Below, one piece after another: positions 838-2,257 of a stretch of 2,257 nt of DNA. Each line of letters opens with the position of its first letter. Positions within the stretch are counted from its first letter, which is position 1. The stretch comes from a plasmid: assembly GCF_056746865.1 (NCBI RefSeq), contig NZ_JBWKMP010000010.1; one strand, given 5' to 3'. The notes beneath the pieces are model-generated. The model did not search any database, was not told the origin of the DNA, and saw only the letters and a list, made by a program, of their open reading frames with translations. The position numbers and the translations under genes were made by a program.

Positions 838-845
838 GCCTGCCG

Positions 846-850
846 CTCCC
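846..850 (-). promoter_or_regulatory. Shine-Dalgarno (GGGAG) for rep, 8 nt upstream of the ATG
   Basis: Minus strand reads ctaGGGAGcggcaggcATG; purine-rich core with 8-nt spacing. Confidence 0.6.
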
Positions 851-872
851 TAGTGCGCGACAGGCGAAATTA

Positions 873-889
873 CGTGTTATCATTCCAAT
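873..889. repeat. Direct repeat copy 1 (CGTGTTATCATTCCAAT), iteron-like, upstream of rep
   Basis: 15 of 17 positions identical to the copy at 903-919; exactly 30 bp apart. Confidence 0.7.
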
Positions 890-902
890 ATCACCTGTAT
901 AT

Positions 903-919
903 CGAGTTATCAATCCAAT
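903..919. repeat. Direct repeat copy 2 (CGAGTTATCAATCCAAT), iteron-like, upstream of rep
   Basis: 15 of 17 positions identical to the copy at 873-889; minus-strand reading ATTGGATTGATAACTCG contains TTGATAA. Confidence 0.7.
907..913 (-). promoter_or_regulatory. Candidate rolling-circle nick-site motif TTGATAA (resembles the CTTG|ATA core of pC194/pUB110/phiX174 origins)
   Basis: Minus strand (the rep coding strand) reads GGATTGATAACTCGATATAC, about 70 nt upstream of the rep start and inside a direct repeat. Match to the consensus is partial (A instead of C before TTGATA). Confidence 0.3.
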
Positions 920-935
920 TTCTCAGGTGGTCATC

Positions 936-974
936 CCCCCGAACGACGCCCATCGTTGCGGGGGTTTATTTTTT
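936..974 (+). terminator. GC-rich hairpin plus T-run (intrinsic-terminator-like) on the + strand, antisense to the rep leader
   Basis: Stem 936-946 pairs with 953-964 (11 bp, one bulged G at 958, six G:C pairs at the base), loop cgccca (947-952), then TTTATTTTTT (965-974). No T-run follows it on the minus strand. Confidence 0.45.
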
Positions 975-1420
975 GACCGCTAAAACCAAAATACACTCAA
1001 AACCATTTCGGAGCAAATTGCCGTTCAGCCCAGTCCTGACAAGGTCTAGAGGCAAATTTGAATCCCAGAGTTATCCCTTAAGTATAAATACAAGGATCGC
1101 GCGCGAGATTTGCTCAAATTTCGAGCTATTTTTTTAGCCCCCCAAAGCCACACATCCCACCCACTTACACCCATCTCATCCACAGACTTTCACCCCGAAT
1201 TTGTGAACAACAAAAACAGCCTCACAGGTGGTTGGCCTCACTCCGTGACACCAACCACCACCACCAGTATCTTCCCCGTGCCATCGTCAATCACAAAATC
1301 GGAACCCACGCCGGAGGCGCGGGACCCCGCGATTTTCTGTTTGACGAGTTCGGGAACGGTGAGCGGGACGCGGAATTTTTTCGCGTGCCGTGAGGCGTTG
1401 GCGGGGTGTCGGGGCGAAGC

Positions 1421-1478
1421 CCTGACCAGGTGGGGAATGTCTGAGCGAGCGTGCGCGGTCCGACATTCCCACATCCTG
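1421..1478. repeat. Left arm of a perfect 58-bp inverted repeat (partner 1826-1883)
   Basis: cctgaccaggtggggaatgtctgagcgagcgtgcgcggtccgacattcccacatcctg is the exact reverse complement of 1826-1883. Imperfect similarity continues about 17 bp outward (to about 1403) and a few bp inward. Confidence 0.95.
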
Positions 1479-1586
1479 CCCCGATTTTTTCGCCAGAACG
1501 CTGGCAGAGCATCGGCAGTTCTGCGCCGTTAAGCCCTCCGCAGGAGCGCACAGTTTCCCGACGAAGGAGAGAAACGTCTAAGTACG

Positions 1587-1616
1587 CATCCGCACTTAAC
1601 TCGCGGATGATTTTTG
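1587..1616 (+). terminator. Intrinsic-terminator-like hairpin inside the inverted-repeat spacer (+ strand)
   Basis: Stem catccgc (1587-1593) pairs with gcggatg (1603-1609), 7 bp; loop of 9 nt; followed by ATTTTTGG (1610-1617). No T-run in the minus-strand orientation. Confidence 0.4.
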
Positions 1617-1825
1617 GCACCGCAGCCACCACAGCTACGCAAAAATTTCGGCGACCGGACAGCAAATCATTCTGCCGTTTTCGTGACGCAGCCGTTCCGC
1701 GCAATCGACAAACTGGCAGTACAGAAAACTCACGAAGTGCGCACTTATACAAACTTCACTTTGTTTCGTTTGTCGTGCGGTCTGCGACGCTCAAAAAAAC
1801 CGAGAAACGGCGGGAACTTTCGGGA

Positions 1826-1883
1826 CAGGATGTGGGAATGTCGGACCGCGCACGCTCGCTCAGACATTCCCCACCTGGTCAGG
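1826..1883. repeat. Right arm of a perfect 58-bp inverted repeat (partner 1421-1478)
   Basis: Exact reverse complement of 1421-1478; imperfect similarity continues outward to about 1900. The arms are separated by a 347-bp spacer (1479-1825). Confidence 0.95.
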
Positions 1884-2052
1884 ACTGCGCCCGACACCCT
1901 CGACACCGTGCCAAATGCACGTTAAAAAATCATTGCGCGCTTCTGGCAAACCTTCAGAGTCTGTTGCCGTGATAGCCAATATGTCAGAAGCGCGCTAAAA
2001 ACGATTCTGACGCGGTGAAGCATCAAATGTAAGGGGATTGCATTCCGGTAAT

Positions 2053-2077
2053 AAAAAAACGCGCCTGAGCGCGTTTT
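2053..2077. terminator. Bidirectional rho-independent terminator, probably ending the minus-strand ORF at 2105-2257
   Basis: aaaaaaaCGCGCctgaGCGCGtttt: 5-bp G:C stem (2060-2064 with 2069-2073), 4-nt loop, extendable by A:T pairs, flanked by A7 on the left and T4 on the right. In the minus orientation the hairpin is followed by seven T, 28 nt after the TAA stop at 2105-2107. Confidence 0.65.
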
Positions 2078-2104
2078 AGAGGCCTTAAAATCGATTTTTA
2101 GATG

Positions 2105-2257
2105 TTATTTCTGTTTTGGCTTATCCATTGTGCGATCGCGGCGATACTTTTTAGCCACCGCCCGCCATGAAAACGCCAGACGCGATCCGTCATCCGCACC
2201 CTCTGCCATGCCATCTGCCATAATCAAATCCTCGTTCGTTTCCCGCTCCAGTTGCAA
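2105..2257 (-). CDS. 3' end of an unidentified minus-strand ORF (open to the window edge), or a complete 38-aa basic small ORF starting at ATG 2219-2221
   Basis: Minus frame from 2257 is open for 50 codons (...LQLERETNEDLIMADGMAEGADDGSRLAFSWRAVAKKYRRDRTMDKPKQK*) and ends at TAA (complement of 2105-2107). The other two minus frames hit stops within 11 and 22 codons. An internal ATG (2219-2221) has GAGGA (2229-2233) 7 nt upstream. A strong terminator lies just downstream. Confidence 0.45.
   Translation of the reverse strand: MQLERETNEDLIMADGMAEGADDGSRLAFSWRAVAKKYRRDRTMDKPKQK

Follow-up and report, generated by a model that had tools for sequence, protein, structure and literature searches.

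The closest described relatives of the DNA considered here are pBuzz (Moran & Hall 2019, Plasmid 101:10-19; PMID 30468749; taken here from the papers that cite it) and plasmids like it. As the citing papers present it, pBuzz is a 1982-bp rolling-circle plasmid with two inverse oriTs that is mobilised by a B/O plasmid, and its relatives carry other oriT types (PMC9282650, PMC11389934, PMC7448864, PMC8765060). In two of these accounts pBuzz and pSZECL_a are characterized as small cryptic rolling-circle plasmids of the Enterobacteriaceae, with rep as the only gene and no relaxase gene, and the two inverse oriTs of pBuzz-like plasmids have their relatives in conjugative plasmids of the I complex (B/O, I1) or of the L/M group (PMC9282650, PMC7448864). 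The plasmid analysed here is built in the same way.

The window, that is, the whole 2257-bp stretch of DNA that was analysed, is a complete circular plasmid in circularly permuted form: circular relatives of the same 2257 bp cover 100% of it, and joining its ends (837 to 1, then 2257 to 2105) yields an intact 329-aa rep ORF. Since rep crosses the window ends, the separate "next gene" that the sequence-only reading had placed at 2105 is in fact the C-terminal end of rep itself. The rep product matches Pfam Rep_1 (PF01446, E=3e-85) and has the HUH (HPHFH) and tyrosine (ETLKYSTKP) motifs; in 16 relatives the gene is free of stops and its substitutions favour the third codon position. A Rep_1 (HUH) rolling-circle initiator as the sole gene on a replicon of ~2 kb, together with two inverse I-complex-related oriT copies and no relaxase gene, is the pBuzz-type arrangement. 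The reading of the window as a complete pBuzz-type rolling-circle plasmid, in which rep is the sole gene and 838-2104 is a set of cis-acting non-coding sites, has a probability of roughly 0.85; the assignment to the pBuzz type was made on the descriptions of pBuzz in citing papers. The plasmid adds another member to this known kind and reveals no new kind of system.

Within that kind, Rep belongs to the Col(MP18)-typed lineage and is 74% identical to the Rep of a pBuzz-sized relative of 1983 bp (L009), which has the same layout and is 83-93% identical in the non-coding modules. The nearest database plasmid is 94.8% identical to the window and has a different type of oriT1. Relative to the pBuzz type, the plasmid is longer by a 94-bp segment (1556-1649) and by 205 bp that separate oriT2 from the rep stop codon (in L009, oriT2 abuts that codon), and the first post-nick base of its oriT1 is a C. 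Non-coding DNA makes up 56% of it. The family is laid out as a single rep gene with 1-2.4 kb of other DNA, the latter amounting to 50-70% in 17 of 17 plasmids; a non-coding stretch that had been thought unusually long for a compact replicon is, for this one, the rule. The features are collected in Table 1.

Table 1. Predicted and observed features of the 2257-bp plasmid (positions in the window; strand left empty where none is assigned)
Feature	Position	Strand	Details
rep, N-terminal 279 codons	1..837	-	ATG at 837-835; runs on across window ends
rep 5' leader end	838..866	-	hairpin GCCUGUCGC...GCGGCAGGC around Shine-Dalgarno GGGAG just before AUG (RNA fold)
invariant blocks CGTGTTATCAT..ATCACCTGT	873-898		alignment of 17 plasmids
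invariant block CAGGTGGTC	924-932		alignment of 17 plasmids
GC-rich hairpin 936-965, then TTTATTTTTT	936..977	+	fold; alignment
candidate dso core	1070..1107	-	- strand reads CCTTG/TATTTATACTTAAGGGATAAC; predicted Rep nick between 1091 and 1090
candidate sso/ssi	1218..1352	-	fold, covariation, strand asymmetry
hairpin I	1227-1259	-	invariant 5'-CTG-3' at 3' foot (1227-1225)
hairpin II	1284-1347	-	apical stem 1305-1323
oriT1, IncI1/B/O-type	1402..1489	+	hairpin 1433-1470, then ACATCCTG; predicted nick after G1478
variable spacer between oriTs	1490..1721		1556-1649 absent from pBuzz-sized relatives
MOBQ4 oriT-like element	1722..1811		similar to positions 78-165 of 178-bp mobC-mobA oriT region
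oriT2, IncI1/B/O-type, inverse	1815..1899	-	hairpin 1834-1871; predicted nick 1826/1825 (CATCCTG/TCCCG)
spacer found only in Col(MP18)-type lineage	1900..2055		inverted repeat 1935-1948/1982-1995
rep transcription terminator	2048..2077	-	9-bp GC-rich hairpin 2077-2056, then T-run
rep, C-terminal 50 codons and stop	2105..2257	-	TAA at 2107-2105

The leader hairpin at 838..866 may serve translational control of rep. The terminator hairpin lies 28 nt past the rep stop codon and shares 92% identity with the DNA that flanks the Rep_3 gene of MOBQ4 plasmids on the 3' side; it is also the site of the sole hit that a permissive-threshold Rfam 15 search of the whole window returned, isrK, scoring 21.1 bits where the gathering score is 50. 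Of the earlier suggestion that the region holds replication origins and/or non-coding RNAs, the RNAs are not borne out, this sub-threshold match being all that Rfam offers; the origins stand by inference, on the strength of an invariant Rep_1-associated block and of the hairpin element immediately upstream, which covaries and is strand-asymmetric. A promoter scan found one weak site; no promoter of rep or of an antisense RNA reached the threshold, so that neither can be assigned one. As a separate observation on the leader, differences among relatives within the 838..866 hairpin appear, by eye in the alignment, to be partly compensatory.

Between the rep leader and the putative origin, invariant blocks at 873-898 and 924-932 enclose a hypervariable segment of ~25 nt (899-923), and 873..932 folds as a stem with a long loop in which CACCTG/CAGGTG pairs around the hypervariable part. 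This is a candidate region for rep control or incompatibility, within a rep leader and control region spanning 838-1000. A small RNA antisense to the rep leader, encoded by the + strand of ~890-977 and setting copy number and incompatibility, is a tentative supplement to the pBuzz-type reading and no replacement for it, with the odds against it. Antisense control is usual among rolling-circle plasmids, and the ingredients can be pointed to: the invariant TGtTATCAT at 876-883 looks like the extended -10 element of a + strand promoter, the CACCTG/CAGGTG stem surrounds a hypervariable loop, and the GC-rich stem at 936-965 is kept by compensatory changes in four relatives (L010, L016, L018 and L019) and is followed in this plasmid by TTTATTTTTT, which makes it terminator-like on the + strand. 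Against these stand the promoter scan, which no promoter here passed, the lack of a matching Rfam family and the T-run itself, which is not conserved in most relatives and so leaves the terminator reading weak. The 936..977 structure might be the end of such an antisense RNA or part of an extended double-strand origin. Origins of the pKYM type are long (173 bp, with an HU-bound enhancer; PMC4439123), so the hairpins around 936-977 could belong to the origin instead.

The likely double-strand origin (dso) is the block at 1070-1107. It does not vary across 17 plasmids, one of them with a Rep of only 46% identity, and it is also present in pVR50G, one of the 2.09-kb Col(BS512) plasmids. Each of 17 Rep_1 plasmids has a single copy of the dso 20-mer, in rep sense, and the non-Rep_1 loci have none. 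The position upstream of rep, on the rep-sense strand, and the conservation together with Rep are those of a Rep_1 dso; in the pC194/pUB110/pKYM Rep_1 family, likewise, the nick region lies upstream of rep in rep sense and the single-strand origin (sso) just upstream of the dso. The candidate nick sequence itself resembles the family consensus, CTTGATA (PMC10378824), without being equal to it: the exact motif is absent from the plasmid, and the conserved candidate reads CTTGTAT..AAGGGATAAC on the - strand. One-mismatch CTTGATA sites at 900-914 were considered as the nick and rejected, the segment not being conserved. With no exact CTTGATA and near matches lying in a non-conserved segment, the predicted nick position is a guess from conservation. 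Most likely, Rep, an HUH nuclease of the Rep_1 type, nicks the rep-sense (-) strand in 1070-1107, whereupon leading-strand synthesis would displace the - strand.

Displacement of the - strand would then reach last the two-hairpin element at 1218-1352, which is most likely the sso, at which host enzymes would prime the lagging strand. Its folding energy on the - strand has z = -5.2; 94.3% of cells are paired, with compensatory changes at 9 pairs; the covariation was reached by 0 of 500 shuffles, and slid controls gave 32-50%. The strand asymmetry is marked: 39 G.T pairs are possible only on the - strand, 2 only on the +. The CTG at the foot of hairpin I is invariant in 16 sequences. Measured along the - strand, 110-280 nt separate the element from the candidate nick downstream of it; an extensive conserved structure that the displaced strand alone forms, shortly upstream of the dso, is generic for sso/ssi elements. 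A small hairpin with a T-rich tail (1318-1322 with 1327-1331), noted earlier from the sequence, does exist, but as part of the larger conserved hairpin 1284-1347 and not as a separate terminator. A sigma-70 promoter rebuilt inside hairpin II was rejected because its spacing is wrong.

The element is unlike the ssoA and ssoU types of Gram-positive plasmids, and its homologues are found in Col(BS512), RepL and IncFII(S) plasmids. In the IncFII(S) plasmids it lies about 630-740 nt downstream of repA, roughly where the G site of R1/R100 lies; in R100 there is a 9-nt G4-like match at +633. Like the single-strand initiation signals of E. coli replicons (G4 oric and plasmid G sites, phiX174-type primosome assembly sites), it consists of stable hairpins on one specific strand. 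The invariant 5'-CTG-3' that directly follows hairpin I on its 3' side is the primase start triplet, and G4 oric has it in the corresponding place; G4 oric has three hairpins, however, and 1218-1352 two. BLAST of 1218-1352 against G4 oric (G4 3881-4010) and the R100 repA-downstream region gave no significant alignment, which leaves a G4-type label unestablished and downgraded to an architectural resemblance. Priming might be either by primase alone (G4-like), with a start at the CTG of the hairpin I foot, or PriA-dependent.

That 838-2104 lacks a credible gene, as the sequence-only reading proposed, is well supported. The ORFs listed there all exist and overlap one another; 0 of 12 have a Shine-Dalgarno-like motif upstream, and rep has GGGAG. 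Some are indeed mirror images: owing to the inverted repeat 1412-1484 / 1820-1892, 1238..1474(-) and 1614..1925(+) both contain the peptide MWECRTAHARSDIPHLV. On rep codon usage the ORFs score -0.35 to +0.11, against a reference of +0.44 that is rep scored on itself. Searches of these ORFs against NCBIfam and PHROGs gave no match. Comparison with 16 relatives shows no synonymous-type bias, the substitutions being spread evenly over the three codon positions (for example, 10:7:6 and 13:8:12 for 1238..1474(-)), whereas control segments of rep give 18:16:54 or 8:5:24, a 3-5-fold third-position excess, with no stops. Frameshifting indels and stops break the ORFs in relatives.

It is accordingly very unlikely, and already largely refuted, that any small protein gene lies hidden in the stretch, such as the 78-aa ORF 1238..1474(-) or the 53-aa ORF 1232..1393(+). 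Such genes would explain the "hypothetical protein" annotations over this stretch in relatives (WP_065898629.1, WP_109475618.1), the PGAP annotation of the 78-aa ORF, the slightly positive codon scores of both ORFs and the fact that 1232..1393(+) is open in 10 of 16 relatives. They would not explain the even substitution pattern, the lack of Shine-Dalgarno motifs and family matches, or the frameshifts and stops in the more distant relatives (L010, L012, L014, L016, L018 and L019). Moreover, the N-terminus of the 78-aa ORF sits in the oriT hairpin, a hairpin that is wholly different between relatives, and such conservation as there is can be accounted for by base-paired stems with compensatory changes.

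The view that the region holds origins and not genes was broadly right, and yet it missed the dominant feature, the transfer origins. The arms of the inverted repeat are 73 nt long and 96% complementary, and they match the oriT of ~500 IncI1/B/O conjugative plasmids at 94%. The likeness to this oriT (R64-type, MOBP12, with the NikA/NikB relaxosome) extends over ~87 bp at 94%. It takes in the nick region CACATCCTG as well as the inverted repeat and, to the left, the conserved block GGGGTGTCGGGGC.AAGCCCTGACCAGGTGG; in each of the two copies ACATCCTG comes after the hairpin. The homology is to the region directly upstream of nikA, where the oriT of R64 and the IncI1-B/O plasmids has its inverted repeat and nick region, and in both copies the nick region (...CATCCTG/T in that type of oriT) is 8 nt from the inverted repeat. 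In p3521 the oriT match lies directly upstream of a nikA-like mobA gene, and the arms are 94% identical to the p3521 oriT. By homology and by position upstream of nikA, then, the arms are identified as two inverse copies of an IncI1/B/O oriT. What differs from the conjugative plasmids is that there is no adjacent nikA or nikB here, that there are two copies in opposite orientation, and that on either side the similarity stops no more than a few bases beyond the core. Every relative has one oriT per strand. The hairpins occur in at least 8 variants with compensatory substitutions, and covariation extends across 19 variants. In the phage collection nothing was found except two tiny records carrying an oriT arm.

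Nick positions were placed from the R64 and RP4 sites. The bases flanking the predicted nick are G/T in oriT2 and G/C in oriT1, i.e., C for T. This C is unique to oriT1 among 23 copies, the 22 others having T, and oriT1 may therefore be less active. The mating apparatus would come in trans, along with NikA and NikB, from a co-resident helper; NikB would cut after CATCCTG, and either strand of the plasmid could be transferred. Transfer of pBuzz has been shown experimentally with a B/O helper, as related in PMC9282650.

Two other accounts of the inverted repeat are very unlikely. One takes it for a MITE-like non-autonomous transposon with 73-nt terminal inverted repeats, inserted in the plasmid: long, terminal-like inverted repeats do flank a variable core of 335 bp, and the core is found in both orientations among relatives. 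The arms, however, are homologous to a functional IncI1/B/O oriT, hairpin and nick region included; no direct-repeat duplication flanks them; the pair is present in all relatives, with copies that are often of different oriT types, unlike the terminal repeats of one transposon; and among 1094 matching plasmids the arms-plus-core unit was nowhere found at unrelated sites with target-site duplications. The other makes the arms oppositely oriented priming signals of a strand-displacement replicon, after the two inverted 40-nt ssi hairpins (ssiA/ssiB) of RSF1010 oriV as summarized in PMC8567376, and although each arm here has a hairpin, this is hardly credible for a plasmid that encodes no RepB'-type primase or helicase, whose sole protein is a Rep_1 rolling-circle initiator, whose arms match oriTs upstream of nikA, and which has a separate and better candidate priming element at 1218-1352.

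Next to oriT2, inside the inter-oriT segment, lies about half of a MOBQ4-type oriT. The element at 1722..1811, which includes the palindrome AAGTGCGCACTT at 1735-1746, is present in 15 of 17 relatives, nearly invariant, and is 81% identical over 91 nt to 3610-3697 of a plasmid (L027) whose relaxase is MobA_MobL (E=3e-70). Identity to the MOBQ4 oriT of the pIGWZ12/ColE9-J group (PMC6856555) is 81-86% over 70-90 nt and concerns its mobA-proximal half; the MOBQ4 plasmids have the same preferred helpers (MPF_I: IncI1, IncL/M). Of the complete 178-bp MOBQ4 oriT only positions ~78-165 are present, and mobA and mobC are absent. In the experimental definition of the MOBQ4 oriT both halves were required and the relaxase worked at least 500-fold worse in trans (PMC6856555), which makes a function of 1722-1811 doubtful. 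An Xer/cer-like site at ~1735-1765 was rejected, since only a XerC-like half resembles one, by eye.

More than half of this replicon consists of cis-acting DNA that makes use of machinery whose genes lie elsewhere, and the plasmid is a clear example of the relaxase-less, oriT-only kind ("pOriT"). A bolder picture, speculative and as a whole improbable, has it carrying docking sites for several trans-acting systems unrelated to one another: for its own Rep, for host priming (through a module shared with IncFII(S) virulence plasmids, Col(BS512) plasmids and a RepL plasmid), for the IncI1/B/O relaxosome on both strands and, at 1722-1811, for the relaxase of co-resident MOBQ4 mobilisable plasmids, with an inter-oriT segment that may invert by recombination between the oriTs. 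Should 1722-1811 work as an oriT, this would be a hitcher riding on another hitcher. Standard annotation labels such plasmids non-mobilisable or furnishes them with spurious "hypothetical proteins"; yet they can spread with IncI1/B/O/K/Z/L/M resistance plasmids. A map of the modules, covering the dso block, the shared single-strand initiation element, the oriT variants that swap between plasmids and the partial MOBQ4 oriT, can improve annotation and the prediction of mobility for hundreds of related small plasmids of E. coli, Salmonella and Klebsiella.

The plasmid carries one gene, rep; the rest, 838-2104, amounts to 1267 bp (56%). Circular 2257-bp plasmids of E. coli and Salmonella cover 100% of the window at 94.8% identity in two pieces, as expected from another linearisation point of the same circle. 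The rep ORF begins on the - strand with an ATG at 837-835 and leaves the window on the left; once the stretch 2257->2105 is appended, the ORF is intact and encodes 329 aa. The product falls in Pfam Rep_1 (PF01446, E=3e-85), a family of rolling-circle initiators, and has both an HUH motif (HPHFH) and a tyrosine motif (ETLKYSTKP). The separate "next gene" that a sequence-only reading had placed at 2105 is thus the 3' end of rep. In one relative, L011 (NZ_CP031921.1), scattered single-base indels disrupt rep (tblastn recovers residues 45-199 only) as well as the candidate single-strand origin; this looks like assembly error, not biology.

Features of the window plasmid and related elements in fetched plasmid loci (L-numbers; L001, nearest full-length relative; L009, 1983-bp pBuzz-sized relative)
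Feature	Position	Strand	Basis
rep leader and control region	838-1000		
Hairpin around rep Shine-Dalgarno, 9 bp, immediately before AUG	838-866	-	fold
Candidate double-strand origin (dso)	1070-1107	-	
Candidate single-strand origin (sso)	1218-1352	-	
sso-like element elsewhere	L020 3501-3609; L024 2501-2549; L021 1790-1878; L023 126-252		
oriT1	1402-1489	+	
oriT2	1815-1899	-	
oriT hairpin, 18-bp arms	1433-1470 (oriT1); 1834-1871 (oriT2)		alignment
MOBQ4 oriT-like segment	1722-1811		
Palindrome AAGTGCGCACTT, within MOBQ4 oriT-like segment	1735-1746		
Lineage-specific spacer	1900-2055		
rep terminator, hairpin then T-run, 28 nt past rep stop codon	2077-2056 (hairpin)	-	
"Hypothetical protein" annotations	L001 603-839; L004 1528-1755; L015 1429-1656; L009 1449-1880		RefSeq

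That 838-2104 is without a credible gene, as had been proposed, is borne out by comparison with 17 related plasmids, rotated to a common start, in which substitutions per codon position, frameshifting indels and stops were counted for each ORF. Control pieces of rep have an excess of third-position substitutions (8:5:24; 18:16:54) and zero stops. In all ORFs of 838-2104, substitutions are spread evenly over codon positions (for example 3:4:4, 10:7:6 and 13:8:12 among relatives for the 78-aa ORF 1238..1474 on the - strand), and more distant relatives have frameshifts or stops. The ORFs named earlier are all present and overlap one another; mirror images among them do arise from the inverted repeat (1412-1484 / 1820-1892, 73 nt, 96% complementary). 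No Shine-Dalgarno motif accompanies any of the 12 ORFs (rep has GGGAG), their codon-usage scores against rep are near zero or negative, and searches of NCBIfam and PHROGs with the 12 return no family match. The observation of a gene-free stretch is correct, far beyond chance. RefSeq/PGAP annotates "hypothetical proteins" (WP_065898629.1, WP_109475618.1, WP_148689360.1) over sso/oriT DNA of relatives; given the even substitution spread and the frameshifts and stops, these calls are most likely spurious. The length of the stretch, thought unusual for a compact replicon, is a family trait and not an oddity, since non-rep DNA makes up 50-70% of all 17 plasmids compared.

The proposal of origins rather than genes holds in outline, but it missed two inverted copies of an origin of transfer and misjudged the rarity of the layout. 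Judged by alignment, the 73-nt inverted repeat is two transfer origins of IncI1 type. Some 500 large conjugative plasmids contain a match to oriT1, at about 94%. In p3521 (typed IncI1/B/O, MOBP, MPF_I) the matching bases are the 14-100 that immediately precede a nikA-like mobA, with the relaxase gene next; this is where the IncI1-type oriT lies. Both arms align to the p3521-type oriT over three features, a conserved left block, the hairpin and the nick region, the last being CACATCCTG in both. As in R64 and RP4, the relaxase is taken to cut after the final G of this nick region; the predicted nicks are then 1478/1479 (+ strand, oriT1) and 1826/1825 (- strand, oriT2). The base just after the predicted nick in oriT1 (1479) is C, not T, unique among 23 oriT copies.

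Every relative has one oriT-type site per strand. The relatives' oriTs comprise at least 8 hairpin sequences, and the two copies within one plasmid are either identical or of different types. Pairing in the proximal stem reaches 93%, and 7 of its 8 pairs show compensatory changes; the structure fits a recognition hairpin whose sequence would set helper specificity. Because the hairpin type at oriT1 of the nearest full-length relative (L001, 94.8%) is unlike that of the window, and because the types (at least 8) occur in various pairings across relatives, oriTs are, on this comparative evidence, exchanged between plasmids as cassettes. In L017 and L018 (rotated non-rep regions, window 1485-1819 compared) the oriT-adjoining segment corresponding to 1643-1819 is reversed and joined to the other oriT copy, the product that inversion through recombination between two inverted oriTs would be expected to produce.

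In the rep-proximal alignment, the candidate dso is the one never-varying block, even where Rep is only 46% identical, and it is also kept in the 2.09-kb Col(BS512) plasmid pVR50G. Each of 17 Rep_1 plasmids has a single copy of the block's - strand 20-mer, CCTTGTATTTATACTTAAGG, always on the rep-sense strand, and the fetched non-Rep_1 loci all lack it. Rep_1 initiators nick at CTTGATA (PMC10378824). The window plasmid has no exact CTTGATA, and near matches at 900-914 were rejected because that segment is not conserved, which leaves the conserved CTTG/TAT of the block as the best candidate for the Rep nick.

Next to rep, 838-1000 forms its leader and control region. Relatives differ partly compensatorily in the Shine-Dalgarno hairpin, which suggests translational control of rep. 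A hypervariable segment of ~25 nt (899-923), flanked by invariant CACCTGT and CAGGTGG, may be a copy-control or incompatibility determinant; in the window plasmid's lineage it duplicates the adjoining conserved block at 85% (direct repeat 873-892 / 903-922). pKYM has a (+) origin of 173 bp, with an enhancer to which HU binds (PMC4439123), so the hairpins of the control region may be part of the dso instead. One may reasonably guess at an antisense RNA, the region holding a covarying GC-rich hairpin with a T-run after it on the + strand in the window plasmid, but no promoter passed a scan, the T-run is not conserved and an Rfam search finds nothing.

Upstream of the candidate Rep nick on the - strand lies the candidate sso, more widely conserved than the dso block: every relative has it, as do Col(BS512) plasmids and an E. 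albertii RepL plasmid, and virulence-type IncFII(S) plasmids of Salmonella have a homologue that lies downstream of repA, at 630-740 nt. This two-hairpin element is, by sequence comparison, a portable module. Its folding-energy z-score is -5.2 on the - strand; when 16 distinct sequences are aligned, the fold pairs 94.3% of cells, with compensatory changes in 9 pairs, a level that 0/500 shuffles reach (slid controls, 32-50%). G.T pairs possible on the - strand only occupy 39 cells, vs 2 on the + strand only, so it is the - strand that folds. A "weaker hairpin with T-rich tail" noted at 1318-1331 is real as a hairpin, the tip of hairpin II; the "tail" is the 3' arm of hairpin II. A Rep_1 nick would displace the rep-sense (-) strand, of which this element would be the last-displaced part, as is classical for a single-strand origin. 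Hairpin I has an invariant CTG at its 3' foot, which recalls phage G4 oric, but the element has no sequence similarity to that origin or to the DNA downstream of R100 repA; priming may be by primase alone or may depend on PriA.

The MOBQ4 oriT-like segment, nearly invariant among relatives and present in 15 of 17, adjoins oriT2 and shares 81-86% identity with the half of the 178-bp MOBQ4 oriT that lies nearer mobA (3610-3697 of L027, a MOBQ4 plasmid). The segment may be a third oriT or what is left of one. The 178-bp oriT (pIGWZ12 / ColE9-J group) was defined experimentally and requires both halves, its relaxase has a strong preference for acting in cis, and MOBQ4 plasmids rely on the same MPF_I helpers, IncI1 and IncL/M (PMC6856555); the need for both halves and the cis-preference make oriT function of the segment doubtful. 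The rep terminator is a module common to different replicons. The DNA around it (2053-2103) has 89-92% identity to the sequence flanking an unrelated MOBQ4 Rep_3 gene on its 3' side (L027 2000-2049) and recurs in the 54-kb plasmid pMO17_54 (L003 5125-5171). That plasmid (L003 4001-4708) and the 151-kb CP057369.1 also carry integrated fragments related to the window plasmid, without intact rep nearby, equivalent to window 1082-1790, which takes in some of the dso block, the sso, oriT1 and the spacer.

The window plasmid belongs to the already described pBuzz-type oriT-only rolling-circle plasmids. In the passages of later papers that describe Moran & Hall 2019 (PMC9282650, PMC11389934, PMC7448864, PMC8765060), a B/O plasmid in the same cell mobilises pBuzz with high efficiency, and the oriTs found in pBuzz relatives belong to other Inc types. 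The window plasmid is 94.8% identical to its nearest record and has its own combination of modules. What is modestly new is a single-strand initiation module widely common to different replicon types, a partial MOBQ4 oriT, and evidence for oriT-type swapping and for inversion of the inter-oriT segment among relatives.
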